Program-made: the position numbers and the translations under genes | The notes under the pieces: generated by a model | The model's input: the letters and a program-made list of their open reading frames with translations, nothing else | Database searches by the model: none | Told to the model about the DNA's origin: nothing | Origin: Verrucomicrobiota bacterium | Lineage (GTDB): Bacteria; Verrucomicrobiota; Verrucomicrobiia; Opitutales; Seribacteraceae | NCBI GenBank assembly: GCA_027622665.1 | Contig: JAQBYT010000042.1 | Location: forward strand, 1-33,429 | Reading direction: 5' to 3' | DNA: 33,429 nt | Part shown: in pieces, positions 4,750 to 33,377 of the stretch | Numbering within the stretch: position 1 is the first letter of the stretch | Layout of the letters: each line of letters starts with the position of its first letter

Positions 4750-4817
4750 TTAGAACGTAGAGGTGTGGCACGGAGTGAGCGCAGCGAACGGAGTTGTCCA
4801 CTACCGACTGGTTATGA
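4750..4817 (-). repeat. attC site of cassette B (68 bp)
   Basis: Minus strand: R'' TCATAAC - CAGTC - L'' GGTAGTGG - ACAACTCCGTTCGCTGCGCTCACTCCGTG - L' CCACACC - TCTAC - R' GTTCTAA. L''/L' pair perfectly apart from one bulged base. Confidence 0.88.
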
Positions 4818-5372
4818 CATAGTCCACCGCAAGAATGTGAAGATAAAATACAACCAAACAATAATGCCGCTCATGATTAAAAACCAGATTGTTTTAAGAA
4901 CCCAAGGCTTTGGTTGCGGTTGGAGCAATACGGAGACCAACTTCGCTGCTCCTTCGTCTGATTCGATATGCGTATTAATGTTATCCCAAGTGTCCGGAGC
5001 AAAGTATAAGTAGTTAATGCTGATCTCTTTTTTGGGAATCAATTTTGGAAAGTAAATTTCCCTTCCACCTCCTGGAAGATCTCTAATTTCATGTTGAATA
5101 TCTGGGTAAACGTTGAAATCTGGCAGAAAATGGTGACCTAATCGAACATTCATTGCTGCTTTTCGACCAGGATTCTTAATTACAACGGAGTGAGTATTAA
5201 CAATAGCACCAGGCTTACCATCGGCTTGTGGTTTGAGACTATGTGAGGAAATGAAACCAAGGTGAGCGATTAACTTGGAACGCTTATCAATTAGATGATT
5301 AATCAACGCACCAAGAAAGAGCGTGACAACGGGCATGCCTACAGCAACAGCCAAATTCCAATCAATATTCAT
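4812..5372 (-). CDS. Cassette-borne hypothetical membrane protein (N- and C-terminal TM helices around a beta-rich soluble domain)
   Basis: 186 aa. Hydrophobic LAVAVGMPVVTLFLGALI and IWFLIMSGIIVWLYFIFTFL segments; low GC; stop codon inside attC R''. Confidence 0.85.
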   Translation of the reverse strand: MNIDWNLAVAVGMPVVTLFLGALINHLIDKRSKLIAHLGFISSHSLKPQADGKPGAIVNTHSVVIKNPGRKAAMNVRLGHHFLPDFNVYPDIQHEIRDLPGGGREIYFPKLIPKKEISINYLYFAPDTWDNINTHIESDEGAAKLVSVLLQPQPKPWVLKTIWFLIMSGIIVWLYFIFTFLRWTMS

Positions 5373-5381
5373 ATTTATTTT

Positions 5382-5447
5382 TTATAACGTAGAGATGTGG
5401 CACGGAGTGAGGCACGAACGGAGTTGCCCACTATGGACTGGTTAGCT
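5382..5447 (-). repeat. attC site of cassette A (66 bp)
   Basis: Minus strand: R'' AGCTAAC - CAGTC - L'' CATAGTGG - GCAACTCCGTTCGTGCCTCACTCCGTG - L' CCACATC - TCTAC - R' GTTATAA. Between the R boxes it differs from the 4750-4817 site by 4 substitutions and 2 single-base indels, including a compensatory G-C to A-T change in the L stem. Confidence 0.88.
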
Positions 5448-6044
5448 GCTTTCATTTTTTAGGGCGACTGCCAATTTGTTCATTGTGGAGATCATTACAT
5501 CTGGCCACTCGCAAGTTCCGGGGAAGTTCTTTGAGAAGATACTGGTTGATGTGCCTTTTCCCCAGCTGTTTCCATTTTCTGCTTTATTTCTTGGAACTGG
5601 ATATCTCCCTTTCCAAATGACAAATTCACTTAGTAGCTTTAGGAACTCTCTTTCCTCTTTTTCAATTTCGATGCTCAGACGATCAAAGAAAATATCAATT
5701 TGGTAACTTGGCCATTCGTTTGGGATTTTTGTGTCTTCGTAATTTTTCGTTCCGCTCTTTTTAATCCATATTGCTCGAAGGTAATTTTCGTATGCAAAAC
5801 CAACAAGGAGTAAAATCTGATCTTCCATGCTGTGGGCTGTATTTAGGAGGTGAGAGTCAGGATCTGTTGCTTTAAACTCGGTTTTAGTTTTGAGTTTCTC
5901 GTTGAGCTTTTTCCTATCATCCCAGAGTCTTTCTAGGAGAACTTTGGCTACTCCAAGTAAATTTGAACCTTTAAAAAGCCATGGATGGGGGGAGGAAAGG
6001 ACGTGTTCGAATTGCTGTAATCCGACTTGGTATCTTTTGTTCAT
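5442..6044 (-). CDS. Cassette-borne hypothetical protein, possibly HEPN-like
   Basis: 200 aa from ATG 6044; the TTG at 6062 straddles the cassette boundary. The pattern GFAYENYLRA ... WKGRYPVP resembles the HEPN 'ExxLKA...RYP' layout. Low GC; stop inside attC R''. Confidence 0.8.
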   Translation of the reverse strand: MNKRYQVGLQQFEHVLSSPHPWLFKGSNLLGVAKVLLERLWDDRKKLNEKLKTKTEFKATDPDSHLLNTAHSMEDQILLLVGFAYENYLRAIWIKKSGTKNYEDTKIPNEWPSYQIDIFFDRLSIEIEKEEREFLKLLSEFVIWKGRYPVPRNKAENGNSWGKGTSTSIFSKNFPGTCEWPDVMISTMNKLAVALKNESS

Positions 6045-6075
6045 TCGATTTTTAGCTAACAAAGGGATAAATCAT

Positions 6076-7497
6076 TCAATTCTCCCAGACATGGGATCCA
6101 TCAACCAATTCCTTGTAATGGGTTTCCAATCGCTGCTTCAATTCGGCCAGCTTAGCGGGATTCGACTTGGCCAAGTCCTCGCTTTCCCCAATGTCCTTTG
6201 AGACGTCGAAAACCTGAAAGTCGGACAAGGTGGCTCCCTTGATTTGGGCCACGTTGCGAGCGTCCACTTTATTCAGCTTCCCGATATCCAATTTCGCCAA
6301 CACTTTCCAATTGCCGTCCCGCATGGCGACACGGCGCCTGTTGAGGGCATTGTAATAGACCCAGACCAAGGGCTTTTTTCGAGTGATCGGCTTATTCTCC
6401 AAAGCGGGAAGGAAGCTTGCTCCGTCCAAGGCTAGGCCTTCCGGAGGCTTGGTTCCAGCCAGTTCGCAAAACGTGGGAAGGAAGTCCAGGGCCGAGACCG
6501 GTTGACTGATTACCTGTCCTGCCTTGATGCGGGCAGGCCAATGCATGATGCCCGCCACTCGAAAGCCCGCATCGGTCGTCCATAGCTTCATTCCCCGCAG
6601 AGGTTTCGGGCTACCAAAGGAACGACGTGAACCCCGACCGTAGCGAAGCAGGGTCTCGGGACCATTGTCGGATGTAAAGACGATCAGCGTATTTTCATCA
6701 AGCTTCATGGCGTTGAGGGCCTTCATCAATTTACCCACCGCCGCATCCAGATTGGTGACGTTGGCGAAGTAATGAGCTTGGTCAACGTTCTTGGCAACCC
6801 CCTCGTACTCATCGACCATCTTCTTCGGCGAAGCCACTGGCTCGTGGGGCTCGTGAAAGGCGACGTAGAGAAAGAACGGTTGGGCGGTATCCTTCGCCTG
6901 TTGTTTACTCAGCCAAGCCAATGCCTCGTCCATGACGAGCTGGCAACTGTACCCCTGCATCGGACCGACCGCTGTTCCGTTTCGGACGAAGTTGCGAGGG
7001 TTCTCATGGGACGGACTTGCATTGTTCTGAGTCCCGAACCAATGATCAAAACCAGCCGCGTCCGGCTGGGGTTGCTGAGGCGAATTGAACTTCCCATTGC
7101 AATGCCACTTGCCCGACATGCAGGTGGCGTATCCAGCCTTTTTCAAGAGTTGGGGAATGGTCACCTCGGATGCCCGCATATGCACAGACCGTCCCCCGGG
7201 TATCCAGTCATACACCCCCGCCCGATTCGGGCTGCGCCCAGTCAGCAAACCAACCCGAGAGGGTGAGCAAACCGGAGCCGTCGAGTAAAAGTCGGTGAAC
7301 CGGATTCCTCCCTTGGCCAACTGGTTGAGGTGAGGCGTCTTGATTTTCGGGTGCCCATAGCACTCGAGGTCCCCGTAGCCCAGATCATCGCAAAGAACGA
7401 CCACTATATTGGGCCTCTCCCTCTTGGCATAAACGGGAAGGCAGGCAAGAATGCCGCCGAGCAAAGCGACGACAAGAGATCGCATTGGAATTTTCAT
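6076..7497 (-). CDS. Arylsulfatase-family (S1, Cys-type) sulfatase
   Basis: Signal peptide from ATG 7497; PNIVVVLCDDLGYGD; FGly motif CSPSRVGLLTGR; GKWH; SDNG. Confidence 0.93.
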   Translation of the reverse strand: MKIPMRSLVVALLGGILACLPVYAKRERPNIVVVLCDDLGYGDLECYGHPKIKTPHLNQLAKGGIRFTDFYSTAPVCSPSRVGLLTGRSPNRAGVYDWIPGGRSVHMRASEVTIPQLLKKAGYATCMSGKWHCNGKFNSPQQPQPDAAGFDHWFGTQNNASPSHENPRNFVRNGTAVGPMQGYSCQLVMDEALAWLSKQQAKDTAQPFFLYVAFHEPHEPVASPKKMVDEYEGVAKNVDQAHYFANVTNLDAAVGKLMKALNAMKLDENTLIVFTSDNGPETLLRYGRGSRRSFGSPKPLRGMKLWTTDAGFRVAGIMHWPARIKAGQVISQPVSALDFLPTFCELAGTKPPEGLALDGASFLPALENKPITRKKPLVWVYYNALNRRRVAMRDGNWKVLAKLDIGKLNKVDARNVAQIKGATLSDFQVFDVSKDIGESEDLAKSNPAKLAELKQRLETHYKELVDGSHVWEN

Positions 7498-7732
7498 TCC
7501 CGAAAGCAAACGCAGAACGGGGAAAACGTCGCTACGAAATTTGCCGGGGCGCAAACTTTATTCGACATAACGACAAATGCCGATTCGTCTATTCCAAATG
7601 ATTTTTCGCTGGGTATCCTACCTTGCGAGTTTTTTCATTCCGACTGGGCATTGAAGAATTATCCTTGATTATCCCGCGATATTTTCAATGAATCGTTCTC
7701 CTTCACTAAACCACTGCAAACCTTTTTCCATT

Positions 7733-8737
7733 ATGACCCTAAGAAACAGATCCAAAGTCGAAATCGGCGTCGTCCCCACCCACCTCATGTTCATCGGGGC
7801 TCTCGCCCCGGACGAATCCGGCAAACTTCCACGCACCCGCTCCGGGGATCTCAAGATCGTATCCGGCATGCGCCTCCTTTGCCGAACCTCCCCAGTCAAA
7901 TTAAACAACGTTCAAATTACCTTGTTCCCGGGGACCGATGCCAAGGATTTGGATGAACTGTTCAAGGGAATGCGTTCCCTCAAGCTTCAAGTTCACCTGA
8001 TCATGATGGTCGGCGGAGCTAACCCGCTCAACCCGAAAGACGAAGACGCAGTCGCGGAGATGCTCAACTCCGGGCTTGCCGTGGCCAAAAAGCACAAGGT
8101 CAAGCACGTCTCTTCCACCTCCTTCGAGGAATGGCTGGCAGGCAAAAAGCTCAAGGGCAAGGCCTTCGACGACGCAGTCATGCAAGTGGTCAAGGTGCAT
8201 GCCCGATGCTACAAGGAATCCGGACTGGACAAGAGCACGATTGAGGCCTGGCACATGGAGTTCCTGCGCGGGGTCGAGTTCCAGAATTTCACCAATGCGG
8301 CCAAGGCAGCCACTGTGGTCAAGGCGATCAACAAGAAGATCAAGAAGAAGTTCTTCAAAGTCATGATCGACGCGGCCCACTGCGGGGACTCGGATCTTTC
8401 CATCGCCGAGAACGAAGCCGTCATCAAGGACCTCGCCAAGAACGACGCCCTCGGCATCTTCCACGCATCCGCCAAGACCACCCGCGGGTGCCTGAGCACC
8501 GATGACGGTTGGATCGGGGCCATGCTCGCCGCCTATGCGCCGACGGGCAAGTTAAAGCACGTCTTCGTCGAGCTTTTCCATCATCAGGACCCTGCCCTCG
8601 CTCCCCTGCGCAAGGCGGTGAAAGGACATGGTATCGACACTACCGACGGGCGTACCTACAATAAGACGGTGACCGACGGAATCATCGAAGTCACCCACCG
8701 CCTGAACAACCTAGCCGCACGGAAATTGCTGGTTTGA
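7733..8737 (+). CDS. Xylose-isomerase-like TIM-barrel protein (sugar phosphate isomerase/epimerase family)
   Basis: Metal-ligand pattern EFLRxxE ... DAAH ... H(AS) ... RG ... ELF. Strong GC3 codon bias from ATG 7733 (ORF track opens at 7688). Confidence 0.7.
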   Translation: MTLRNRSKVEIGVVPTHLMFIGALAPDESGKLPRTRSGDLKIVSGMRLLCRTSPVKLNNVQITLFPGTDAKDLDELFKGMRSLKLQVHLIMMVGGANPLNPKDEDAVAEMLNSGLAVAKKHKVKHVSSTSFEEWLAGKKLKGKAFDDAVMQVVKVHARCYKESGLDKSTIEAWHMEFLRGVEFQNFTNAAKAATVVKAINKKIKKKFFKVMIDAAHCGDSDLSIAENEAVIKDLAKNDALGIFHASAKTTRGCLSTDDGWIGAMLAAYAPTGKLKHVFVELFHHQDPALAPLRKAVKGHGIDTTDGRTYNKTVTDGIIEVTHRLNNLAARKLLV

Positions 8738-8762
8738 TCCAACGCATCACCCCAAAGGGCCG

Positions 8763-10163
8763 ATGACGCGTAAGGCTTCACCGAAGCGGAAACCCGCAAG
8801 AACCTCGAAAGGCTCCCTTTCGGAAGGCTTGCTTGTGCGGTTGCGATCGTCTTTCGAGATGAACGAAATCGACCGAGCTCGTTTCAATGCGATCACCCAT
8901 TCCGATCTCAACCAGATCGCCCTCAGCCACAAACTCAATGGTAAGGATGACGGGCATTTCAGCCACAAGGTCACAACCAAAGGGATTACCAATCAAAAAA
9001 CGGCCGGGCTCTGTTGGCTCCATGCCTCGCTCAACCTTCTGCGACCACGGGTGATCAATAACCTGGGCTTGGAAAACTTCGAATTCTCCACCGCCTACCT
9101 TCAATTCTGGGACCTTTTGGAAAAAGGGAACCGTTACCTCGAAGGCGTAATCGAGCTCCGGAACGCAGACCCACTCGATCGCATGTGGAAAATCCTCAAC
9201 CAGTGGATGATTGCCGGGGACGGGGGATGGTGGGGATACGCAAAGGCGCTGATCGAGAAATACGGGTTGGTTCCCAGTTCCGTAATGCCCGAGACCCGGA
9301 ACAACAAGGACACGAGAGTCATGAGTAAGGTGTTGGCCGAGCTTCTTCGCTCCAAGGCTGCTGAAATCCTGAGAGCAAATGACAAGGGATCCGAAGAAAC
9401 CGACTTAAGAAAAATCAAGGAGGCAGCCATGGAGGATGTTTATCGATTCCTCAGCCTTAACCTTGGGGTTCCGCCCACTGAATTCGAGTGGCGCCACCAG
9501 AAGGAGAGAAAAGAAAAGAAAACGGCCAAAGCAAAGGTAGGCGTAAAACAGGACCGCCTAACTGCGTGGAAGAAATACACCCCGCAAAGCTTTTTCAAGG
9601 AAACGGTCGGTCTTGAGCTTTCCGATTACTTCTGTCTTTACCATACCCCCGACAGGCCCTTTGACAAGCATTACGTCTTCGATGAGCAATACTGTACCGT
9701 GGGCACGGATGAAATGAATTTCGTGAACTTAGAGATCGAGCCGATCAAAAAGATTTGCCTCAAGGCGATTCTGGCCGATGAACCGATTCCGTTCGGAGTG
9801 GACATGGGAATCGATCAATCCACCAAGCACGGGCTGATGGAACACAAACTCTTTGACTATGAAGCCTTGTTTGGGATCAAGATGGAATTGTCAAAGTCAG
9901 AACGCAAGCGCCTGTGTGCTCCGAGGGCCGGTCACATGATGGCGATCATCGGTGCCGACCTCAAAAAGGGAGTTACCAAAAAATGGCTGATCGAGAACAG
10001 CTGGGGAGACGACAAGGGCAAAAAGGGACTTTGGACCCTCTACGATTCATGGTTCGACGAACACGTCGACCACGTCATCGTTCACAAGAGACACATTCCC
10101 GCCAAAACCCTCAAGATCTTCCGGGAAAAAGCCGAAAGACTACCCATTTGGTACTGGGACTAG
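8763..10163 (+). CDS. pepC: Aminopeptidase C / bleomycin hydrolase (peptidase C1B)
   Basis: ITNQKTAGLCW (oxyanion Gln and catalytic Cys), DGGWW, GHMMAIIG (His), IENSWG (Asn), ends LPIWYWD. Confidence 0.88.
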   Translation: MTRKASPKRKPARTSKGSLSEGLLVRLRSSFEMNEIDRARFNAITHSDLNQIALSHKLNGKDDGHFSHKVTTKGITNQKTAGLCWLHASLNLLRPRVINNLGLENFEFSTAYLQFWDLLEKGNRYLEGVIELRNADPLDRMWKILNQWMIAGDGGWWGYAKALIEKYGLVPSSVMPETRNNKDTRVMSKVLAELLRSKAAEILRANDKGSEETDLRKIKEAAMEDVYRFLSLNLGVPPTEFEWRHQKERKEKKTAKAKVGVKQDRLTAWKKYTPQSFFKETVGLELSDYFCLYHTPDRPFDKHYVFDEQYCTVGTDEMNFVNLEIEPIKKICLKAILADEPIPFGVDMGIDQSTKHGLMEHKLFDYEALFGIKMELSKSERKRLCAPRAGHMMAIIGADLKKGVTKKWLIENSWGDDKGKKGLWTLYDSWFDEHVDHVIVHKRHIPAKTLKIFREKAERLPIWYWD

Positions 10164-10229
10164 TGGAAAAAAGGTTTCCGATCTACGAGAGAGGGACTTA
10201 AGCTTCGTAGTGAAAAATTTCGCAATGAC

Positions 10230-11021
10230 CTAGACGATATCCGAAGCCGAAACGTTTTCTTCAAGGTGGGAGATCGAAGTAGTGCCCGGAATGACAATAA
10301 TGTTTGATGCGCGCCCAAGTAACCACGCCAAGGATTCTCGGGCTGGCAGCGGAGCCCCGTGCTCCATCGGTTGTGCCCCGAGGGGCCCCCAAGGCAGGTA
10401 GGCTATCCCCTTTTCATTCGTGTAATCGACCATGACATCGTCTTCGTGCTCAGCTTGATTGAAACGATTCTGCACGGACACGATAGAGGTTACCGAAAGA
10501 GCCTGATCAAGTTCCTCACGATTGACGTTGGACAAACCGATGAAACGAATCTTTCCTTCTTTGCGAGCAGTCTCCAGAGCACCGATTGAATCCTCGAGCG
10601 GAACCTCAGGATCGATCCGGTGCAATTGAAAGAGGTCGATGCAATCAGTCTTCAGGTTTTTCAAGGCCGTCTCCACTTGCATGCGCAAAGTTTTCGGTGA
10701 ACCGTCCACTACAATCCGTCCGGGAGCAGGTTTATCGACCCCTCCTTTGGTCGTGATAAAGACATCTTCGGGATAAGGATGAAGGGCATCGGCAATTAGC
10801 TTGTCCGCCCACTCGGGTCCATAAGCATACGCAGAGTCAAAAAATTGCACACCCAGCTCGACAGCCCTCTTCAAGAGTGCCTTGCCTTCTTCCCATTGAG
10901 CATATGGTCCGAAGTTGCCCGGTTGACCAGTTAGACGCATGGCGCCGTAACCCATGCGGTTTACGATGGATTCGCCTCCGATGGCAAAGGTCTGTGATCG
11001 CTTGGTTTCGTTACTCATCAA
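10230..11021 (-). CDS. Aldo/keto reductase (YdbC/pyridoxine-dehydrogenase-like)
   Basis: RMGYGAMRLTG, FDSAYAYG, ITTKGG, IDLFQLHRID, GKIRFIGLSNV, SVQNRFN, IPGTTSISHLEENV. Confidence 0.9.
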   Translation of the reverse strand: MMSNETKRSQTFAIGGESIVNRMGYGAMRLTGQPGNFGPYAQWEEGKALLKRAVELGVQFFDSAYAYGPEWADKLIADALHPYPEDVFITTKGGVDKPAPGRIVVDGSPKTLRMQVETALKNLKTDCIDLFQLHRIDPEVPLEDSIGALETARKEGKIRFIGLSNVNREELDQALSVTSIVSVQNRFNQAEHEDDVMVDYTNEKGIAYLPWGPLGAQPMEHGAPLPARESLAWLLGRASNIIVIPGTTSISHLEENVSASDIV

Positions 11022-11166
11022 TACAAAGAGCTGAAAATTAAAAACGAATCCGCCGTCTAGTTGTCATTTGAGCGATGAAAACATCGTTACCTTCAAGCAA
11101 TAAAATTTTCTCTTGTGAACAGTTTCTAATTGGCTGCCTACATAGAGTGGGAATAAGTTAAAGTCA

Positions 11167-13443
11167 ATGAAGCCAATACACATGATGCTACTGGCCATGA
11201 GCCTGCAAGTATCGTTGATTGGGGCAGTCAAAGAACCGTCGCCCGACGGCTATTTCGTGGACGAGGTATGGGGCAAGGTGGGTGAACTCTCCTGTCTAAA
11301 ATGTCACAACAGCTCGGGCGAGGCGGAGGACAGTCGATTCATCCTTCGGGAAACGATCCTCCTGAAGGGAACGGACCTGCAGAATGCCCATGATGCCAAT
11401 TTCAAGGTCTTCGAAAAAATGGCCCGGATGCGTAAAGCGGGACAACAAGCCCGGTTGCTCTTGAAACCGGTTGGTGAATTGGATCATGAAGGTGAAGAAG
11501 TTCTGGAACCCAAATCGACCGGATACCGCATACTGGAAGGATTCGTCAGCCGAATGGAAGGTAAAGACGTCGCCGAGGCACCCAAGGTAAAATATACACC
11601 GCCATCGTTCTTCGACGGCGTGACCATGCTGGACGATCGACGTTTGCTGCGCCGCCTCACGCTGTCCTTGGCGGGACGTTTGCCGAACGCGACCGAGTTC
11701 AAGGTAATTGAAAAAAAAGGATTGGTCGGCACGAACGAAATCCTCGACCAACTGATGACTGAAGACGCCTTTTACGAGCGCCTCAAGGAAGGCTTCAACG
11801 ATATCTTCCTGACCAATGGCTACGATGGCAACGGGGAGTTGGTCTTGTCCTATGATCATTTCGAGAAGACTCGCCTGTGGTACCAAAAACATGACCTAAG
11901 CCACATAGAGGATAAGAAGGAGCGACAAGAGGCGCTTTGGGACTTGGCGCGCGTCTACCGCAAGGCGATCCGCGGCGAACCGCTCGAGTTGATCGCTCAC
12001 GTGGTGCGGAACGATAAACCGTTCACCGAGATCATCACCGCCGACTACATCATGGTTTCCCCGTACTCGGCCAAGGGCTACGGCATTTTCGAGCAGGTAA
12101 AGGACCGCTTCAAGGATCTCGATAATCCCTTCGATTACGTTCCGGCCAAGCTGCCGGCGCTAAAGGCCAGAAACGGCAAGGTTCAGGAATCGAAAACGGG
12201 GTTATATCCCCACGCCGGCCTCCTCAGCATGTTTCACTACTTGCGCCGCTACCCCACCACGGAAACCAACCGCAATCGCCTGCGGGCCCGCATGTACTAC
12301 CGGCACTTCCTTGGCATCGACGTAATGGAGTTGGCGGACCAAGTCTCGGACGCCGCAGCGATCGATGCAAAGTACGAGACCCCATGGATGGAAGCAGCGG
12401 ATTGCGTGGTCTGTCACCGCACCATCGACCCCGTGGCTGGTTTATTTCAGGATTTCTACAACGAGGAAGGCCACTATGGGCCTCGCAAGGACGGTTGGTT
12501 CGAGGACATGTTTGTTTCCGGACTGGAGGGCGAGGATTTGCCAAAGAAAGAAAAATGGCGGTCCCTGCAGTGGCTCGCCTCCCGCACCGCAAAGGACCCA
12601 CGGTTCGCCATCGCGATGACTGAACACGTCTGGTACCTCCTGAGCGGTCGCAAGGTGTTGCGCTCGCCGCAAGACATCGAGGATCCACTCTTCACGCCAC
12701 GTCGCCGTGCCTACCAAATGCAGCGCCGCGAGATCGCAACCGTCGGGAAACGCTTCGCCGAGGCGAGCTTCAATCTCAAACTGGTCTTCAAGGAACTCGC
12801 AAAGTCACCCTTCTACCGAGCCGATGGTCTAAGCGCGGTGGTTACGCATCCTCATCGCAAGGCAGAGCTTCACGACCTTGGAGTGGCCCGCTTGCTGGCT
12901 CCCGAGCAACTGGAGCGCAAGATCGAGGCGCTTTTCGGGACCCGCTGGGGAAAAGTGGAAAAGGAGATGAAGATTCTCTATGGTGGCATCGACTCAAAGT
13001 CCGTCACCGAGCGACTGACCGAGCCCAGCGGCGCCATGGGCGCAATCCAGCGGATCATGGCCAACGACGTCTCCTGTCGACACGTCGCCGCCGATTTTGC
13101 CCTCGAACCAGCCAAGCGACGTCTGTTCCCCCATGTGGAAAAAGACGTCGTGCCGGGATCCGACCCAACCGCTGACGCTAAAATCCTCAAGACAATCGTT
13201 CATCTCCACGAGTATCTTCTGGACAGTCGCGAGACAGTCGATCACCCGGAGGTCGAACGTACCTTCCAGTTGTTCGCCGCGGTGGTGGCAGAAGCGAAGA
13301 AACATAATGAAATCGATAAGCGGGACACCTATCATTGCGGCCGCATCGATGGCAAACGGGTCGATGATCAGCATTACACCCAGCGCGGTTGGCGGACCGT
13401 GGTGACCTACCTTCTACGACAACCTGAATTCCTCTACGAATAA
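11167..13443 (+). CDS. Secreted planctomycete-type cytochrome-c-like protein with two CxxCH motifs
   Basis: 758 aa. Signal peptide; CLKCH and CVVCH; LRRLTLSLAGRLP; HAGLLS; RNRLRAR; ends PEFLYE; directly upstream of a DUF1501-like gene. Confidence 0.8.
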   Translation: MKPIHMMLLAMSLQVSLIGAVKEPSPDGYFVDEVWGKVGELSCLKCHNSSGEAEDSRFILRETILLKGTDLQNAHDANFKVFEKMARMRKAGQQARLLLKPVGELDHEGEEVLEPKSTGYRILEGFVSRMEGKDVAEAPKVKYTPPSFFDGVTMLDDRRLLRRLTLSLAGRLPNATEFKVIEKKGLVGTNEILDQLMTEDAFYERLKEGFNDIFLTNGYDGNGELVLSYDHFEKTRLWYQKHDLSHIEDKKERQEALWDLARVYRKAIRGEPLELIAHVVRNDKPFTEIITADYIMVSPYSAKGYGIFEQVKDRFKDLDNPFDYVPAKLPALKARNGKVQESKTGLYPHAGLLSMFHYLRRYPTTETNRNRLRARMYYRHFLGIDVMELADQVSDAAAIDAKYETPWMEAADCVVCHRTIDPVAGLFQDFYNEEGHYGPRKDGWFEDMFVSGLEGEDLPKKEKWRSLQWLASRTAKDPRFAIAMTEHVWYLLSGRKVLRSPQDIEDPLFTPRRRAYQMQRREIATVGKRFAEASFNLKLVFKELAKSPFYRADGLSAVVTHPHRKAELHDLGVARLLAPEQLERKIEALFGTRWGKVEKEMKILYGGIDSKSVTERLTEPSGAMGAIQRIMANDVSCRHVAADFALEPAKRRLFPHVEKDVVPGSDPTADAKILKTIVHLHEYLLDSRETVDHPEVERTFQLFAAVVAEAKKHNEIDKRDTYHCGRIDGKRVDDQHYTQRGWRTVVTYLLRQPEFLYE

Positions 13444-13453
13444 CGACCCGACC

Positions 13454-14737: not shown

Positions 14738-14765
14738 AAGTCAGATTACTCGATCGAACATACGC

Positions 14766-15392: not shown

Positions 15393-16020
15393 TTTTTGTT
15401 GGGAAGAGGTTTTGTCTTGGGAGGTGTTTTCTTTTTCGGTGAATTCTTAAGGAAGTCAAGGCGACGGGCGAGGAATTGGTGAGATATTTCCACGGCTTCC
15501 TTGCGGTTTTCCTCATCGTAGTCCCAAAAGGCCTGCACCACTTTCTCGGTCTCGGGAAAATCACGTCCGTCGTCTCCAATGCGTTTGCGCAGGGCAGCCA
15601 AGCGATACTTCAGATCCGATACAACCGCGGCGTATTCCGGGTTATCGTACTGGTTGACGGTCTCGAAACGATCCTTAATCAGGGCGTACAGTTCCCAAGC
15701 CGGCGGCGTACGATTGCCTCCCTTATAGTCGGCTCCGTAATAATAGATAAGCTTGTGTTCCTTGGTGCGGATGCCGACATGCCCCGGATTGTCGTGGTGG
15801 GACATGTGCATCCAGTAGCGATAATACGCCTCCTGCTGCCAACCGCGAGGTTCCTTGCCGGTCTCGCAAATCGTCTTAAAGCTATGGCCCTGCATGTAGC
15901 CGGGGGTATTGACCCGGCGAAGGCGAGCATGGTGGGAGCAAAGTCGACGTTGCTCACGATGGCGTCGGTCCGACTGCCCGCCTTAATTATCTTAGGATAA
16001 CGGACGAGAAGCGGTGGACG
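15389..16020 (-). pseudogene. 5'-truncated, frameshifted sulfatase remnant (C-terminal part only)
   Basis: Reads RPPLLVRYPKIIKAGSRTDAIVSNVDFAPTMLAFAG, then shifts frame at about 15914 (one extra G gives GVNTPGYMQGHSF...YYRYWMH...GIRT...WELY). No N-terminal DD or CxPxR region; begins about 20 nt after the next gene's stop. Confidence 0.85.
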
Positions 16021-16038
16021 GTGATAAGACCAAGCCTC

Positions 16039-23368: not shown

Positions 23369-23447
23369 CGAAGAAAGCAAGGGTGGATAAACAAATACGG
23401 GCCAAGGCTCCTAGGCAGAAGCCACAACACGAAAAGAAAAAGCACCG

Positions 23448-25619: not shown

Positions 25620-25622
25620 CAC

Positions 25623-26275
25623 CTACTTTTCGCGGTATTTGCCGTCGGGCAACCGAGAGGGGAGCTTGTACTTGGGATCGGTGATCAGCTCGTACACTTT
25701 TGGGTCACGATCTTTGACTAACTCGCGATTATAGAGACGCCACTCTCTACCAATATCCTCTCTGCGACGAACAGTGTCTTGGGCTCCCCGCACGGAAGTG
25801 ACAGCCCAATAGAGGTACTCGGTGCATTGGCACCCGTAGTCGCAGGTTCGATCGTCGTAGGTGAACCAGGCTCCCTTCGGATAGCGCCGGGGTTGATCTC
25901 CGTAGCAAACTGCCCTTGACCGTGATGAAAGCCGGCATCTTGGAAAACGTCGTGATCCAGCCTGCCCAAAGCCCGTTCATTCGCCGTCATGAAGAGAAAG
26001 GCGTTTCGTTGGATCATAGTCGCCAGAACCTTGGGGTTGTCGGGCTTGCCATCCTCGTCATTGTCAAGGTACTCGGCTAAGATAACCGCTGCGTGACGCA
26101 ATTTGGCAGGCGGGGTGGTCGCTGTTCCGAAAACATTCAGGTAATAGGTGAACTGCTTCCTGAACACAGCCAGTTCACCACTGGGAACATGGCCGATTTT
26201 CAAAGTAGGCGGAGCGGCCACGATCCCGGAAACCCCAGGGCATAGAAGGATCAACATGAGGACTCGGCGGAGCAT
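25623..26275 (-). pseudogene. Frameshifted, probably internally deleted, secreted hypothetical protein
   Basis: ATG 26275 MLRRVLML... reads AEYLDNDEDGKPDNPKV...EINPG. At about 25885 protein-like sequence continues in another, Met-less frame: RYPKGAWFTYDDRTCDYGCQCTEYLYWAVTS...LPSRLPDGKYREK* (TAG at 25625-25623). Confidence 0.75.
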
Positions 26276-26343
26276 TATTGAATGGAACAATCGCACCTTT
26301 TGGAACGGCAATCTAAAAGACCCCTGAGAACAGGTTCTGACAT

Positions 26344-27885
26344 TCAGATTCCGGCCGGGGCACTGCGTCCGCTTTTCTTGTACTCTTCCAACTTGGCCTT
26401 CAGTTCCTTCACCGTCTCGGGATGTTTGAAGTATAGGTTGTTGGTTTCGCCGGGATCGAACTCGAGGTTGTAGAGTTGGCCCGGAGCCTCTGGAGCTTTC
26501 TCGGGCAGGGCGTATTGCTTGAGCCCCCACTCGCCATCGCGGCTGTAGTTGCTTCCGCCGGATCCCTTGTGGTCGAGGTACTTCCATGGGCCACGGCGAA
26601 TGGCCATGGCGAGGCTGATGGTTTGGTGCAGGGTGTACTCGCGAATCCGTTTGCCTTTATCCTCGCCCAATAGAACCGGAAGGAAATTGTAACTGTCTTC
26701 GGCCGCGTCGTTGGGCAATTTCACGCCCACGATTTCCGCGTAGGTAGCCATGAGGTCGGTCAGGCAGATGGTTTGATCCGAGACGCTTCCCGGTTTTACC
26801 TTGCCGGGCCAACGGGCAATGAAGGGTACGCGGTGCCCACCCTCCCAGTTGTCGCGCTTTACTCCACGCCAAGGACGAGCACCGTCGTGCTTGTGGGTTT
26901 TACGCATGTTGATCACAGTCGGCACTTCGGGACCATTGTCACTGGAAAACATAACCAAGGTATTTTCGGAAAAACCATGCTTCTTCAAGGCTTCCATCAA
27001 TTCGCCCACGACGTAATCGAGCTCAAAGATGAAATCGCCATGCGGACCGGACTTCGTCTTGCCCTTGAAGGCATCACCGGGGAAGGAGGGAAGATGCACC
27101 CCTTGGGTCGAGTGCAAGAGGAAGAAAGGTTTCTTCGAGGAACGCTTTGCATGGTTGTCCAAAAATTGAAGGCTCTTGTTGAGGAAAGTCATGTCCACTT
27201 CCTCCAGATCAAACCCCGGAGCGATCATGCCGGCGCGATTGTCCCTTGAATAAGGATGCTTGGGCAGTGGCCCACGATCAACGATATGGGTGGGCGGCAC
27301 CGGAATCCGATCACCATCGACGTAGGCATACAGCCAATCGGTCGTTGGGCAACACACCGTACCGAAGAAATGATCGAATCCACGATGGATCGGAGCATCG
27401 GGAATTGCCCGGGAATAGTCGATGCGCTTCACCGCCGCCAAACCGTTTTGGTTGATGGGCTTCCCGGTCTTGTCATGGAAAGTCATTCCAACGTGCCACT
27501 TGCCAAATAGGGCGGTGGAATAACCCTTCCGTTGAAACATGCCGCCGAGTGTAAGGCGCTTCTCCTCAATCATGCAGGGACCGCCGGCACCAGTGAACAC
27601 ACCACGCATTCCCGTCCGGAAAGCCATACGACCAGTCAGCACGCTGTAACGCGTAGGAGTACAAACGGTTGACGGACTGTGGGCGTCAGTGAAAAGCATA
27701 CCCTCGGTCGCCAGTCGATCAAGGTTTGGCGTGGGAATATTCGATTCCGGATTGTAGCAGGCAACGTCACCGTAGCCTAGGTCGTCGGCAAGAATGAAGA
27801 CGACGTTGGGGTATTTGTTATTCGCGGCATCTGCAAAATAATAAGCAAGAAGGCAAAGGAAGAGAGAAATTGTGAGGTTTTTCAT
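26344..27885 (-). CDS. Arylsulfatase A-like sulfatase (Cys-type)
   Basis: Signal peptide MKNLTISLFL (ATG 27885); PNVVFILADDLGYGD; CTPTRYSVLTGR; GKWHVG; SSDNG; WEGGHRVP. Confidence 0.93.
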   Translation of the reverse strand: MKNLTISLFLCLLAYYFADAANNKYPNVVFILADDLGYGDVACYNPESNIPTPNLDRLATEGMLFTDAHSPSTVCTPTRYSVLTGRMAFRTGMRGVFTGAGGPCMIEEKRLTLGGMFQRKGYSTALFGKWHVGMTFHDKTGKPINQNGLAAVKRIDYSRAIPDAPIHRGFDHFFGTVCCPTTDWLYAYVDGDRIPVPPTHIVDRGPLPKHPYSRDNRAGMIAPGFDLEEVDMTFLNKSLQFLDNHAKRSSKKPFFLLHSTQGVHLPSFPGDAFKGKTKSGPHGDFIFELDYVVGELMEALKKHGFSENTLVMFSSDNGPEVPTVINMRKTHKHDGARPWRGVKRDNWEGGHRVPFIARWPGKVKPGSVSDQTICLTDLMATYAEIVGVKLPNDAAEDSYNFLPVLLGEDKGKRIREYTLHQTISLAMAIRRGPWKYLDHKGSGGSNYSRDGEWGLKQYALPEKAPEAPGQLYNLEFDPGETNNLYFKHPETVKELKAKLEEYKKSGRSAPAGI

Positions 27886-28045
27886 ATGGAACAGAAAATC
27901 GTTACCGAATCCGTCTGGCTTTTCAACCACAGGTTGCCATTCCCAAAACAGTTCGAATTTGTAATGGACGGCTAAGTCGCTAGCGCTCTACTCTATCGGT
28001 TCAACCTTTAACCCCGTCAAATACGCCTTGGGCTAACATTCTTTT

Positions 28046-29461
28046 ATGAGTTCATCAAACCAGACATCCTTTCTCGACAACGTAAACCTTTGTTTCGACC
28101 GGGCCGCTGCGGCTATCGAACTGCCAAGTGGGCTCGCCCAGCAGATCCGCACATGCAACGCCATCTGCGAAATGAAATTTGGCGTCGAGTTACATGGAGG
28201 GTATGAGGTCTTTACTGGCTGGCGAGCCACCCACAGCGAGCATGTCCTTCCCGTTAAGGGAGGAATACGCTACGCCACCTTCTCCGACCAGCAGGAAGTG
28301 GAAGCCCTCGCGGCCCTCATGACCTACAAGTGCTCCATCGTCAACGTCCCCTACGGTGGCTCCAAAGGCGCATTGAAAATTGACCCAAAGAAATACACGT
28401 CGGAGGAACTTGAGCACATCACCCGGCGATTCACCCAGGAACTAGACAAGCGTGGATTCATCGGTCCCAGCCTAAACGTGCCGGCTCCCGACATGGGCAC
28501 GGATCAACAAATGATGGCGTGGATGGCCGACGAGTACCAACGGCTTCACCCCAAAGACATCAACGCTCGTGGTTGCGTCACAGGCAAACCCGTCCACTGC
28601 GGGGGGATCCAAGGCAGAGTCGAGGCTACCGGACGTGGCGTACAATACGGCCTGCGTGAATTCTTTCGCAACCCGGACGACGTAAAGGCGGCCGGCCTCG
28701 AAGGAACCCTCGAGGGTAAGAGAATTATCATTCAAGGTCTCGGTAACGTCGGCTACCATGCCGCAAAGTTTCTGGAGGAAGAAGACGGTGCAAAAATCAT
28801 CGCAATCCTCGAACGAGACGGAGCTCTGCTGAACGAAGACGGACTGTCAGTCGAGGAAGTATTCGCCCACAAACAGGAAAAGGGCTGCATGGAAGGTTTC
28901 TCGGGAGCGCAATTCGTCCCCGGGGGAGCTAAACTTTTGGAACACCCCTGCGACATCCTCGTGCCCGCTGCAATGGAAGGCGTCATCTCTCAAGATAATG
29001 CCGGAAACATTCAGGCGAAAGTTATCGCCGAGGCTGCCAATGGCCCCGTTTCCTATGAGGCCGACCGCATCCTCAACGAAAAAGGGGCATTCATCCTGCC
29101 CGATGCCTACCTCAATGCCGGCGGGGTAACGGTCTCCTACTTCGAGTGGCTCAAGAACCTCTCGCACGTTCGCTTCGGCCGCATGGACCGTCGCTACGAG
29201 GAAGCGCAAGGACAAGCCATCCTCGACGTTCTCGAGCAAGCCCTCGGGAAGCCCGTCGAGGGTCAGGCCCGCGACAGCCTCCTGACAGGACCGGATGAAC
29301 TCACCCTCGTTCGCTCCGGTCTCGACGACACCATGCGTGAAGCCTACGGAGAAATTCGTGAGGTACATCTCTCCAACGACAAAATAAACGACCGGCGAAC
29401 CGCCGCCTTCGCTCTATCCATCAAGAAAATCGCCGCCATCTACGAGAGCATGAATCTTTAA
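28046..29461 (+). CDS. gdhA: Glutamate dehydrogenase (Glu/Leu/Phe/Val dehydrogenase family)
   Basis: PVKGGIRY, MTYKC, PYGGSKG, VPAPDMGT, VTGKP, ATGRG, QGLGNVG, EAANGP, NAGGVTVSYFEW. Confidence 0.95.
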   Translation: MSSSNQTSFLDNVNLCFDRAAAAIELPSGLAQQIRTCNAICEMKFGVELHGGYEVFTGWRATHSEHVLPVKGGIRYATFSDQQEVEALAALMTYKCSIVNVPYGGSKGALKIDPKKYTSEELEHITRRFTQELDKRGFIGPSLNVPAPDMGTDQQMMAWMADEYQRLHPKDINARGCVTGKPVHCGGIQGRVEATGRGVQYGLREFFRNPDDVKAAGLEGTLEGKRIIIQGLGNVGYHAAKFLEEEDGAKIIAILERDGALLNEDGLSVEEVFAHKQEKGCMEGFSGAQFVPGGAKLLEHPCDILVPAAMEGVISQDNAGNIQAKVIAEAANGPVSYEADRILNEKGAFILPDAYLNAGGVTVSYFEWLKNLSHVRFGRMDRRYEEAQGQAILDVLEQALGKPVEGQARDSLLTGPDELTLVRSGLDDTMREAYGEIREVHLSNDKINDRRTAAFALSIKKIAAIYESMNL

Positions 29462-29474
29462 GGCTTATTTTCAT

Positions 29475-30890
29475 GTGAACGAAGCTGTTCCAAATGCCAC
29501 TTCAGAAGAAGTCGATTGCAGTCTTGAGGCTGCCGCACAGGCCTTTCATTCTTTCAGAAAGCTTTCGGGCGAACGCAGAGCGAATTTCCTAGAAACGATC
29601 GCCGACAGACTGGAAAACAATTCCGAGGAAATCATTTCCCTCGCCCATCGCGAAACCTCGTTGGGCCTTCCACGCCTAGGGATGGAACTCCGGCGAACCG
29701 TAAACGAGACCCGACTCTTCGCCGGGCTTGCCCGATCCGAAGATTGGCTGGAGTCACGATCGGACGAGGCAGAACCAGACCGTATCCCAGTGCCAAAGCC
29801 CGCCCTGCAGAGCAGCCACATTCCCCTTGGCCCTGTTGTCGTGATAGGTGCCTGCAATTTCCCCTTGGCTATCTCGGTAGTCGGAACGGATACCATGTCG
29901 GCCCTAGCTGTAGGATGCCCGGTCATAGTAAAGGCACACCCGGGACATCCGGGCACTTGCGAGAAACTCGGGGAAATCGTTAATGAGGCCTCTACAAATA
30001 CCGATATGCCCTCCGGAACCTTTTCGCTTCTGCAAGGGAAAGACCACCGAGTCAGCCGCGAAATGGTCGGGCATCCGCTCACCAAGGCAGTTGCCTTCAC
30101 GGGTTCCCTGCAAGGTGGTCGAGCTCTCGCCTCCATCGCCTCCGCTCGCCCCGAACCCATACCTTTCTATGCCGAGATGGGAAGCCTCAACCCGGTTTTC
30201 ATCCTTCCCGGATCCCTGCGGGAACGCAGTGAAAAAATCGCCGAGGGGTATGTTGGAGCCGTAAACTTGTTCGCAGGCCAAATGTGCACCAAACCCGGAG
30301 CACTCGTTCTGATTGACGGTCCTGGTCTCGAAACCTTTCTCTCGACCGCAATAGCGACCACACGAGCGAAACTACCCGTCGCCATGCTCAACTCCGACAT
30401 TCGCGAAAACTACGAGACGAGCGCAAAGACCCTTGGCGAAAAGGCGGAACTCCTCGCCGAATCAGAAACGCCGCCCGAAATTTCGCGGAACGAAGCTGCC
30501 TCGCGGCTGTTCGTCACCGAAGCAAGAAGCTTCCTCGCCGACCCCGAATTGCGAGCCGAGGCATTCGGCCCGGCTTCCCTAATCGTCAAGGCCAAAGACA
30601 AGGAGGAACTGCTAGAGCTTGCTCGTCAACTTGAGGGAAACCTGACAGCAACCCTACACGCAGAAAATGGGGACGAGAAGCTACTGGACGAGATTCTGCC
30701 CCTTCTCGAGCAAAAGGCAGGTCGAGTTCTCTGGAAAGGGTTCCCTCCCGGCGTTGTTCCCACCACATCGACACATCACGGTGGCCCATGGCCGGCCACC
30801 TCCGATTCCAGACAGACCTCGATCGGGCTTTACGGTTATCGCCGGTTCGTAAGACAGGTCTGCCGACAAGGGTTTCCTAAAGACGCATAA
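29475..30890 (+). CDS. Aldehyde dehydrogenase, alpha-ketoglutaric semialdehyde dehydrogenase (KGSADH)-like
   Basis: PLGPVVVIGACNFPLA, VKAHPGHP, AFTGSLQGGRAL, PIPFYAEMGSLNP, GQMCTKPG, EAFGP, HGGPWPATSD. GTG start 13 nt after gdhA. Confidence 0.88.
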   Translation: MNEAVPNATSEEVDCSLEAAAQAFHSFRKLSGERRANFLETIADRLENNSEEIISLAHRETSLGLPRLGMELRRTVNETRLFAGLARSEDWLESRSDEAEPDRIPVPKPALQSSHIPLGPVVVIGACNFPLAISVVGTDTMSALAVGCPVIVKAHPGHPGTCEKLGEIVNEASTNTDMPSGTFSLLQGKDHRVSREMVGHPLTKAVAFTGSLQGGRALASIASARPEPIPFYAEMGSLNPVFILPGSLRERSEKIAEGYVGAVNLFAGQMCTKPGALVLIDGPGLETFLSTAIATTRAKLPVAMLNSDIRENYETSAKTLGEKAELLAESETPPEISRNEAASRLFVTEARSFLADPELRAEAFGPASLIVKAKDKEELLELARQLEGNLTATLHAENGDEKLLDEILPLLEQKAGRVLWKGFPPGVVPTTSTHHGGPWPATSDSRQTSIGLYGYRRFVRQVCRQGFPKDA

Positions 30891-30955
30891 TCAAACCGAC
30901 CTCTTCTCCCCTGCCTTTCTTTTGGCGTTTACAAAAGCCTCGGGCTGGTAACAGT

Positions 30956-31795
30956 TTGGCACCCGTTATGTCTCCTAATAGTGAAAAGGACTCGGCGATA
31001 CCTCACGCCTTCGTAAGCGAAGGCCCTGTGCGGGCAAGAGTTTGGAAAATTTGGTCTCCCCTGTGGAAGCTCCGAAACCATCGGAACGGTCGCCTCTTTC
31101 CTCCCCTCGCAACATTCGGAATGCTGGTTTTGCTTTCACCCTACCAATTGACCAACTGGATCGCCTCCGTTCGTGGAGAAACTATATGGGATCCGAAGTC
31201 CGTCTTCGTCTTGGCCGACGGTCGCTACCTCGATCACATTATCCCCTTTGTGCCATGGACCATATTCGTGTACTACACCATTTTTCTTTTTTACCTAGCC
31301 CTGTCGTTTGCAGCCCCAAAGACAAGAGACGGGCATCGCGAACTGCTAGTCACCATCCAGTTCGTCGTCTTGGCCAGTTGGTTTGCCTACGTCGTATTCT
31401 TGCTATTCCCCGCCCAAGTGGACTTGCGAGGGCAAGCCTTTGCCTTAGGCGCCACGGAAGGGAGCCTTGGACCGTTTTACGCCAGCTTCCACTGGCTGGA
31501 TCGCCCCTTCAACTCTTGGCCCAGCCTGCATGTCGCTCAAACCTTTCTAGCTGCCATCGGGCTGACTCATTGGTGGGCGCGCGAAGGCCGCAAGTTGCGA
31601 ATAATGGCCCTGTGGATTCTCTGGACTACTCTCGCCCTTAGCGCCCTCACGACCAAGCAGCATTTCCTATGGGATGTACTCACGGGATTCGCTCTGGGAC
31701 TGACTGCATGGTGGTTCGGACTTCGACCGGCGTTAAGACATCTTTCTGGAAAATCGCCTTTAAACGAAAAAAACCTTGCATCGGTTTCCAACTAA
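30956..31795 (+). CDS. PAP2-superfamily membrane protein (AUR1/IPC-synthase-like)
   Basis: About 6 TM segments; DRPFNSWPSLHVA (C2-like) and TTKQHFLWDV (C3-like HxxxD). Start uncertain (ATG at 30968). Confidence 0.8.
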   Translation: MAPVMSPNSEKDSAIPHAFVSEGPVRARVWKIWSPLWKLRNHRNGRLFPPLATFGMLVLLSPYQLTNWIASVRGETIWDPKSVFVLADGRYLDHIIPFVPWTIFVYYTIFLFYLALSFAAPKTRDGHRELLVTIQFVVLASWFAYVVFLLFPAQVDLRGQAFALGATEGSLGPFYASFHWLDRPFNSWPSLHVAQTFLAAIGLTHWWAREGRKLRIMALWILWTTLALSALTTKQHFLWDVLTGFALGLTAWWFGLRPALRHLSGKSPLNEKNLASVSN

Positions 31796-31851
31796 ATAAT
31801 TAATCAAACACATACCATTCTTGTACTAAACCAATTAAATCTACAAACGCC

Positions 31852-32721
31852 ATGGAAAAGAAAATCTCCCTCTTCCTCGCAATCCTCACCCTAGGATTCG
31901 CACAACAAATATTCGCACAAGACGAAAACGCCAGCGCAGGCGACTCGGAACGCTGGTCCGACTTCCTTCCGCTCAATAAGGAAATGGCGGGCGATGCCGA
32001 CCTACCGCTGCCTTTTGGCATAGGGATAACGGGCTACTGGCAGGAACAGGATTTGAAATCCAAGACAATAGGTTTGGCTATCCCCGCCAGGGCAATCCCT
32101 CAAGGTGTTATCACAGCTGCAAACGCAAAAGTGGAAAGTGAAGTAGACAGCTGGACCATTCGTTTAGACACTTGGATATTGCCATTCCTGAATATTTACG
32201 GCGTTGCAGGCAAAGTTGACGGACAAAATACAGTTGCACCCGGATTGGACATACAAGGGGCCATCACAGCTTTAGGCGGTCTTTCGGCAGGTATCGAAAC
32301 AAACGGTTTCAATGTGCACTATGATGGCGATGTTTATGGTATTGGTGCTATTCTCGCAGGCCAATGGGGTAAATATTGGGGAACAATTGACTACAACTTC
32401 ACTCAAGCCGATCTTGACATCAGCACCTCCGAAATTGATACTCACACCATCTCCCCTCGCATCGGACGCTCAGGTTCTCTTGGTAATGTAAAGGGATCTC
32501 TATGGATTGGAGCGATGCACCAAGCAGTTGATGAAAATCATAACGGACAAATAAACCAAGGTGGTCTTGATATTGAATATATTGTTCTGAACGAACAGGA
32601 AGACGAATGGAACTTTCTCCTTGGTGGGTCTGCAGAACTGAGTAAACAGTGGAACGCTTCAATAGAGGGGGGCATCGGCGACAGGAAGCAAGTGATGGGC
32701 AACCTGACCTTCCGCTTCTAG
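31852..32721 (+). CDS. Putative outer-membrane beta-barrel protein
   Basis: Signal peptide; alternating hydrophobic strands; C-terminal LTFRF beta-signal. Confidence 0.75.
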   Translation: MEKKISLFLAILTLGFAQQIFAQDENASAGDSERWSDFLPLNKEMAGDADLPLPFGIGITGYWQEQDLKSKTIGLAIPARAIPQGVITAANAKVESEVDSWTIRLDTWILPFLNIYGVAGKVDGQNTVAPGLDIQGAITALGGLSAGIETNGFNVHYDGDVYGIGAILAGQWGKYWGTIDYNFTQADLDISTSEIDTHTISPRIGRSGSLGNVKGSLWIGAMHQAVDENHNGQINQGGLDIEYIVLNEQEDEWNFLLGGSAELSKQWNASIEGGIGDRKQVMGNLTFRF

Positions 32722-32753
32722 AGGCTAGGCGAAAAATTAAACGCAAACTTTCT

Positions 32754-32791
32754 AAAAGGCGACTTGCTTGAGCGGGTCGCCTTTTTCTTTT
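32754..32791 (+). terminator. Rho-independent terminator of the beta-barrel gene
   Basis: AAAA-GGCGACTTGC-(TTGA)-GCGGGTCGCC-TTTTTCTTTT. Confidence 0.85.
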
Positions 32792-32835
32792 GTGAAGATC
32801 AAAACCAATTCCAAGCAATCCGGAACATCACTCGA

Positions 32836-32946
32836 TTGTCATTGCGAGGAAGCCCACAGGGCTGACGCGGCAATCCAGTTCAATTCTTACTGTCTTCCTG
32901 ACGATTCAGCTGGATTGCTTCGTCGCTCCACTCCTCGCAATGACAA
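32836..32946. repeat. REP/RPE-like palindromic element (GTCATTGCGAG...CTCGCAATGAC type)
   Basis: Perfect 15-bp terminal inverted repeat TTGTCATTGCGAGGA / TCCTCGCAATGACAA plus an inner stem GCAATCCAG / CTGGATTGC. Confidence 0.8.
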
Positions 32947-33066
32947 CGAGGGAAGCATCCACTCGCAATCGTTAGCAACACATTCCATCCGGGATTACCC
33001 CAACCGCGAGTCAGTCATGCATTGGGAAGAAGTTCCGAAATGAGCAGAAGGCACCAGCAGTAAACT

Positions 33067-33098
33067 CAGACGCCCTCCGGCGAACCGGAAGGCGTCTG
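33067..33098 (-). terminator. Strong hairpin, probable terminator of the minus-strand transcript
   Basis: Minus strand CAGACGCCTTCCGG-(TTCG)-CCGGAGGGCGTCTG: a 14-bp stem with one G-U pair and a UUCG loop. The U-tail is weak. Confidence 0.65.
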
Positions 33099-33140
33099 TT
33101 GAAAAACTTGCGACGTCTCCGCCGCAATCAAACGTATAAG

Positions 33141-33371
33141 TTCTGCTTAATCATAATCAACGCGCGTTCTGATGAAACGAGTGTGTCCCTCAAGGGTTTT
33201 GGTTTCCGTGCCGCCGCCGGTTAATTCCTCCAGCTTACGAAAGATGACATTGCGATCCTTGGCCGTCGTGGCGTCCCTCGCTGCTTGCTGCAAACGTGCA
33301 ATCTCCGCAGAACAATCGGATGCACTACAATCATTCTCTCGTTCCTCGTTCATGATGTGTGATCCTTGGAG
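33141..33371 (+). mobile_element. Solitary 231-bp integron cassette, apparently integrated at a GAT (attG-type) site
   Basis: Left junction G|TTCTGC (33140-33146) is the exact complement of R'' GCAGAAC (33307-33313). The right junction at the R' position reads G|ATCAGG. Confidence 0.75.
33147..33353 (-). CDS. Small hypothetical protein in reverse orientation within the cassette
   Basis: 68 aa. AAGGA lies 9 nt before the ATG, both inside the attC. The stop abuts the left cassette junction. Confidence 0.55.
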   Translation of the reverse strand: MNEERENDCSASDCSAEIARLQQAARDATTAKDRNVIFRKLEELTGGGTETKTLEGHTRFIRTRVDYD

Positions 33372-33377
33372 ATCAGG
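33307..33377 (+). repeat. attC site (71 bp) with a hybrid R' box
   Basis: R'' GCAGAAC - AATCG - L'' GATGCACT - ACAATCATTCTCTCGTTCCTCGTTCATGATG - L' TGTGATC - CTTGGA - R' GATCAGG. Arm GGAT(G)CAC(T)ACA(A)TCAT pairs with ATGATGTGTGATCC, leaving three single bulges. Confidence 0.78.

Follow-up and report, generated by a model that had tools for sequence, protein, structure and literature searches.

Integron cassettes inserted behind host stop codons in a Verrucomicrobiota genome

Two insertion sites and their empty alleles

The window, the whole stretch of 33,429 nucleotides analysed here, is contig C38 (JAQBYT010000042.1) of the Verrucomicrobiota assembly GCA_027622665.1 (G000; 4.5 Mb, 93.5% complete, with 3,428 genes in the gene calls made here) and carries integron cassettes with their attC recombination sites at two places, namely two cassettes behind a sulfatase gene (site 1) and a single cassette behind an oxidoreductase gene (site 2). 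Both are real, clean insertions of the attG type, as empty alleles of site 1 and site 2 demonstrate, with a GWT target, a crossover after the G and no other change in host DNA. The initial annotation had located cassettes just 3' of host stop codons and in opposite attC orientations, which is confirmed, with a distance of 15 nt and attC polarity along the host gene at site 1, and with the R' box overlapping the stop codon and polarity against the host gene at site 2. The solitary attC assumed at site 1 had to be abandoned, as the insert consists of two cassettes with two attC. The features of site 1 are as follows, an arrow denoting the crossover and ORF an open reading frame.

6076 to 7554, minus strand: host sulfatase gene (PF00884), kept in congeners, TGA at 6078-6076
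6054 to 6060, minus strand: 5' junction G↓TTAGCT, exact complement of the R'' box of the first cassette
5442 to 6044, minus strand: cassette 1 ORF, 200 aa from ATG, stop codon inside R'', no Pfam family
5382 to 5447, minus strand: cassette 1 attC, R'' AGCTAAC, R' G↓TTATAA
4812 to 5372, minus strand: cassette 2 ORF, 186 aa, stop codon inside R'', no Pfam family
4750 to 4817, minus strand: cassette 2 attC, R'' TCATAAC, R' G↓TTCTAA, the latter being resumed host DNA
1585 to 4683, minus strand: downstream host gene (PSCyt1/DUF1549/DUF1553)

The site-1 insert spans 1,304 bp with 41% GC, from the crossover G at 6060, 15 nt past the sulfatase TGA, over an internal G at 5388 to the last G at 4756. Both ORFs lie on the host (minus) strand, the attC polarity equally runs with the host and, since the downstream host gene is also encoded on the minus strand, the insert is situated between two co-directional genes. 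The 186-aa protein has 56 matches including its own cluster, among them proteins of the gammaproteobacterial genera Thalassolituus, Marinobacter and Colwellia. The congeners G002 and G004 possess both host genes and a colinear spacer without the insert. Read runs were examined via contigs in four of the 24 runs listed, including X1, which may be the source run of the assembly, X4 and the RNA run X18. The complete site-1 stretch is found within a single contig in X1 and X4, runs from two studies, and no empty site-1 joint was listed in any of the four runs, site 1 being fixed in them. In X18 no contig covers 4732-6187 and the flanks are thinly covered, contigs being unable to show absence, strand or ends.

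Site 2, close to the contig end, comprises the following features.

33373 to 33429, minus strand: 3' end of the host Gfo/Idh/MocA oxidoreductase gene (461 aa), which continues on contig C41
33141 to 33371, plus strand: site-2 cassette, 231 bp, in part of the population only
33140 to 33146, plus strand: 5' junction, host TATAA followed by G↓TTCTGC, which is exactly complementary to R'' GCAGAAC
33307 to 33377, plus strand: site-2 attC with R'' GCAGAAC and R' G↓ATCAGG, the latter overlapping with the stop codon of the host
33147 to 33353, minus strand: ORF of 68 codons, running antisense to the attC in which it starts
33108 to 33127, minus strand: U-tailed, terminator-like hairpin of the oxidoreductase gene, from the terminator scan
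33067 to 33098, strand not assigned: second host hairpin, present in relatives, absent from the terminator-scan list

With the left G at 33140 and the right G at 33371, the crossover is located 1 nt behind the host stop codon and the R' heptamer, GATCAGG, shares positions with the complement of the host TGA at 33375-33373. The cassette points against its host because its attC is on the plus strand and the oxidoreductase gene on the minus strand. Both hairpins lie beyond the cassette, as expected from the initial placement of the cassette before a terminator, although the U-tailed hairpin is the one at 33127-33108 and not that at 33067-33098. The empty allele is preserved in the same assembly, where C41:1-137 is identical to window positions 33062-33140 joined to 33372-33429, and an empty site 2 occurs in G003, G004 and G005 as well as, as an empty joint, in runs X1, X4 and X18, the last of which displays only the empty allele. 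That site 2 represents an assembly artefact or a gene duplication might be suspected from the overlap of C38 and C41 at this very site, but is barely credible, as the depths of the filled (4.9) and the empty (4.2) contig in X1 sum to about that of the flank (10.2), contigs of X2 extend across both site-2 junctions and the insert has a full attC.

The ATG of the 68-codon ORF at 33353 is found, as initially annotated, 19 nt after the host TGA and the ORF is read with the host gene. Co-directionality of the ORFs with their host genes stands for both sites, but at site 2 it depends on a frame antisense to the attC that starts inside it. Under a self-trained dicodon model the frame appears coding-like, its score being reached by 0 of 2,000 shuffles and by 13 of 843 intergenic stretches. 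Searches for homologues of the 68-aa product gave none at near or longer lengths and none in viral contigs, and Atlas matches stayed under 0.8. Other members of the site-2 attC family carry forward ORFs, some of them together with open antisense frames that start in the attC. Equally, a phage link of the site-2 cassette was not found, with no relative in viral contigs and three pattern matches, none of which is the site-2 cassette; the exact attC pattern had no match in metagenomes and three matches in genomes, from unrelated taxa.

Integrase, attI-like heads and further cassette loci

An integron integrase (IntI) was searched for with the TIGR02249 profile and its cut-off. None exceeds the cut-off in G000 (window and C41 included, in an assembly 93.5% complete) and none is found in eight congeners, as opposed to two sister genera, in which 5 of 20 and 6 of 29 genomes have one; family-wide, 11 of 60 genomes possess IntI, all of them in these two genera. 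Neither intI nor attI lies beside the cassettes at sites 1 and 2. The family attI ends with AAT(A/C)TAAG↓TT or CTATAAG↓TT, and three arrays of G000 designated C58, C65b and C65c start at attI-like heads (C58:19688, C65:35509 and C65:37185), the last of which matches one sister-genus attI (85% over 33 nt). Owing to these heads the three arrays are not without a platform, so that the initial description as an integron without a platform fits sites 1 and 2 and the insertions on C25 and C26, and fails for C58, C65b and C65c.

These integrase-less arrays might suggest that sites 1 and 2 are themselves remnants of integrons after deletion of intI and attI, and integrase loss is named as one source of attC clusters that have no integron integrase (CALINs) in the sections of Cury et al. 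(PMC4889954) considered here. Such an origin is nevertheless very improbable. It is contradicted by the empty alleles, as removal of the cassettes yields the short intergenic stretch of the relatives with no extra DNA.

Cassette loci in G000 are found on C38 (two), C25, C26, C58, C65 (three) and C5 (the latter recognized by eye), and were compared with five congeners. The insert on C26 is clean, measures 924 bp and is located 39 nt past a stop codon, co-directional with the gene, the site being empty in G003, G004 and G005. On C25 a clean insert of 885 bp interrupts codon 7 of a gene whose copies in G003 and G005 are intact; the insert lies 145 nt past the preceding stop codon. A further cassette, in G003, G005 and G008 (L050-L052, positions 1080-1566) with an empty site in G000, is co-directional 11 nt behind the stop codon of "glgB", a working label for a branching-enzyme-like gene with alpha-amylase domains, and its presence in three species was counted as one event. 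Together with sites 1 and 2 these cases make up five clean insertions, with C25, C26 and glgB as the independent test set. C58 and C65a, whose flanks lack colinearity with relatives, were kept out of the clean count; each is co-directional, C58 lying 52 nt behind a stop codon and C65a 10 nt behind that of a gene fragment.

Regarding the C25 locus (C25:3016-3901, L033), the attC following the cassette contains, four codons ahead of the point where the host gene resumes, a GTG in frame at which the disrupted gene could restart. Furthermore, the disrupted gene is devoid of about 350 nt present in G003.

The attC of sites 1 and 2 display R'' AWC, R' GWT, spacers of 5-6 nt and complementary L'' and L' with an extra base in L''. 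Across 34 sites of the family paired positions covary (89.6% paired; 0 of 500 shuffles), in an alignment fitted to the model. The survey for further attC is incomplete, as only 34-150 candidates were scored per genome. The covariance models R1 and R2 recovered 15 and 13 sites in G000, nearly all their own seeds, R2 missed the site-2 attC in this genome search and an Rfam search gave no match at the gathering score. A profile from 19 seeds gave genome-wide scores above the shuffled maximum with no convincing new site beyond array members, the best non-array match (C16:12105) being inside a gene. A genome-wide stem-score grammar, swamped by noise, and a boundary-plus-ORF filter, with 31 matches versus 22-35 in decoys, were dropped.

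Survival, expression or targeting behind stop codons

The position of the cassettes is probably best understood as the survival of harmless insertions and not as aiming, after placement at sites 1 and 2 by an integron integrase from elsewhere. The folded attC bottom strand of a circular cassette would recombine with a double-stranded GWT site by the attG route, with the integrase provided by a lost or unassembled integron or by a visiting element. Insertions into genes and promoters would mostly be purged, such that cassettes would be tolerated in the gap behind a stop codon. The site-1 ORFs, and perhaps also the backward one of site 2, would be expressed by transcription continuing from the host operon, although expression need not explain persistence. 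In G000, 33,101 of 297,821 GWT sites (11%) are intergenic, while four of the five clean insertions are, as purging predicts; C25, which breaks a gene at codon 7, is in turn what untargeted insertion predicts.

An upstream gene in the same direction is found for 43% of intergenic GWT sites; the share that is co-directional and no more than 40 nt from a stop codon is 10.5-18%, and the share no more than 15 nt from any stop codon is 11-19%. That sites 1 and 2 both lie at most 15 nt from a stop codon has a chance of about 0.01-0.04, for a pattern picked after it had been seen. Of the independent clean insertions two (glgB and C26) fit the pattern and one (C25) misses it. In the comparison with the GWT null, as proposed with the initial annotation, stop-proximal co-directional placement has P 0.011-0.033 for both independent intergenic cases within 40 nt, the threshold being set afterwards, and attC polarity follows the host in four of five cases (P about 0.11-0.12). 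On present numbers stop-proximal, co-directional placement is a modest trend.

Several observations weigh against mere survival of harmless insertions. Besides the P value for the two independent cases, all four intergenic insertions are within 40 nt of a stop codon (P 0.002-0.018, with the founding two included and the threshold chosen afterwards), and in all five insertions ORF direction agrees with that of the adjacent or disrupted host gene. The glgB cassette of G003 differs from that of G005 and G008 at 2-3 of about 485 nt and its flanks at 35-36 of about 775; being far less diverged than its flanks, it may have spread recently and possibly conferred a benefit, and this low divergence across three species suggests spread by recombination or repeated insertion. 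Concerning the integrase step, the bottom-strand hairpins of the three attC do not exceed shuffled sequences in stability (z about 0 to 0.5), with the expected stem in the minimum-energy structure at site 2 only, and no integrase attributable to the insertion events was found.

The alternative put forward with the initial annotation, which we consider rather unlikely, is near-random insertion followed by persistence mainly when the host operon transcribes the ORF, even by way of a backward cassette inserted antisense. Both independent intergenic cases agree with it (glgB at 11 nt, C26 at 39 nt), as do the co-directionality of five of five ORFs, the unbroken site 1 in runs from two studies, the apparent spread of the glgB cassette between species and the coding-like backward ORF, and up to 10% of inserted cassettes have been found to be expressed (Loot et al., 10.1101/2022.09.11.507474). 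On the other hand, only five insertions are at hand and C25 disrupts a gene. Site 2 is not fixed, being about half filled in X1 and empty in X4 and X18, so that retention at this site is not implied. Equally, the 68-aa ORF has no relative, and antisense frames in its attC family also occur beside normal forward cassettes.

Other genomes of the phylum likewise weigh against selection of expressed ORFs. R2, with strict thresholds that may favour arrays over lone cassettes, was run on 150 genomes of the order and 150 of the phylum; 66 apparently isolated matches were taken from those listed and 59 loci were analysed, seven being excluded as long arrays running to contig ends. Among the matches listed, 33 of the 59 loci start at an AT-rich attI-like head, as judged by eye, and 27 of these 33 have no IntI in the DNA examined, the closest long ORF upstream being about 130-1,700 nt away. 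The rest comprise four integrons, two ambiguous loci, five that run on and 14 left without a class. The sole locus behind a stop codon among the matches listed is L146 (32 nt, co-directional), and with one of 59 fitting, the stop-codon rule is not general in the phylum. The initial proposal that cassettes are kept when appended to operons is accordingly borne out by two of the three independent clean insertions, and not by C25 or by the phylum.

Alternatively, the integrase may prefer GWT sites with an attI-like left flank (AT-rich, with A or T at -2) that is commoner behind stop codons. This appears quite improbable, though the left flank of site 2 closes with TATAAG, similarly to the family attI, the sequence TGAATG..TCCCT precedes the crossover both at site 1 and at the glgB site, and an attI profile from 21 other genomes (16-nt window) places site 1 among the highest-scoring 2% and site 2 among the highest-scoring 6% of intergenic GWT sites, with a combined P for five sites of 0.025-0.071 over four window sizes. 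However, the profile set was picked by eye and the 16-nt profile leaves C26 and glgB at the 40-46% level. Moreover, no relative or run examined has a second cassette at the same site. The CRGM motif at positions 6-9, which defines attG hotspots and not all attG sites (10.1101/2022.09.11.507474), is absent from the empty sites (ACGG at site 1, GACA at site 2).

The most far-reaching interpretation, that the stretch behind a stop codon is a selected landing zone in an integrase-less marine lineage, where cassettes delivered in trans spread when the host transcript reads their ORF in either attC direction and a backward cassette is expressed by antisense insertion, is unlikely. If true, site 2 would represent such an event during its segregation, and the glgB cassette would be a case of a sweep across species.

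Relation to known cassette routes and side observations

With GWT targets and no IntI found, sites 1 and 2 match the published attG route to lone attC sites with no integron integrase (SALINs), of which 3,400 have been described in 2,469 genomes (Loot et al., 10.1101/2022.09.11.507474). In that study de novo insertions in E. coli occurred at GWT without orientation bias and with fewer in essential genes, and inserted cassettes could be expressed near host promoters. Site 2 with one attC and site 1 with two, and no nearby intI, resemble a SALIN and a small CALIN, respectively, with coding sequence attached as forward ORFs at site 1 and only as a backward ORF without homologues at site 2. The likeness to SALINs extends to isolated cassettes at GWT, an integrase not nearby and possible expression from host promoters; the difference is that Loot et al. 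mapped insertions de novo in E. coli, while here empty alleles and a segregating event occur in a wild population and one cassette (site 2) is backward-coded, unlike their description. The cassettes without a nearby integrase which the initial annotation called dispersed are thus real, but follow this published route and do not constitute a new kind of integron.

Secondary-site integration is a possible CALIN origin in the consulted sections of Cury et al. 2016 (PMC4889954), by which half of CALINs are in genomes without IntI, and a review, in the part considered, likewise lists off-target insertion. Site 1 resembles such CALINs in having two attC and no intI, and here an origin by clean insertion is demonstrated by empty alleles. 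Plasmids equally harbour cassettes outside integrons, in the accounts drawn on aadB in RSF1010 and pRAY (cited in 10.1101/2022.09.11.507474) and dfrA14 inside strA (PMC11213556), with a resident promoter driving, or expected to drive, their expression; these are resistance genes under drug selection, in contrast to the chromosomal genes without assigned function described here. A gene-context survey of natural SALINs is not part of the main text of Loot et al. (10.1101/2022.09.11.507474), and no context survey of natural SALINs or solo attI was found beyond the cited papers, with subscription papers outside the search. To the attG route known from laboratory E. coli, G000 adds natural cases with both alleles, one of them segregating, in a genus without IntI found. 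These cases make it testable whether harmlessness or expression is what wild SALINs are filtered for, and an expression filter, if true in a large set, would reveal how cassettes turn into ordinary members of operons.

Integrase-less arrays with attI-like heads (L104-L169, G000) are repeated within a genome and share upstream DNA, 84% identical over 131 nt in L152/L156 and 97% over 261 nt in L104/L106. Among genomes with such repeated arrays G199, a single contig, has no IntI over the cut-off, and three of five have a full IntI elsewhere.

Several attC sites or cassette ends possess an ATC/GAT core instead of AAC/GTT (C65:6474-6540, C65:32667-32737, L119, L135, L153, L155 and L169). Window positions 32837-32945 belong to a palindromic repeat family with multiple copies (170 BLAST matches; fold z -9.5) and presumably resemble repetitive extragenic palindromic (REP)-type elements. 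At C5:58029-60973 (L001) an AT-rich block contains a truncated tyrosine integrase, has attC-like ends in a different style and adjoins host-like DNA abruptly; it is a candidate foreign integron fragment or chimera. C65:26500-41700 (L032) displays two divergent arrays around one gene and a 29-nt direct repeat at 36929 and 41133, with pieces that we take to be group II intron reverse transcriptase, transposase and toxin-antitoxin genes; in G056 and G065 a homologue of its central gene occurs as a cassette.

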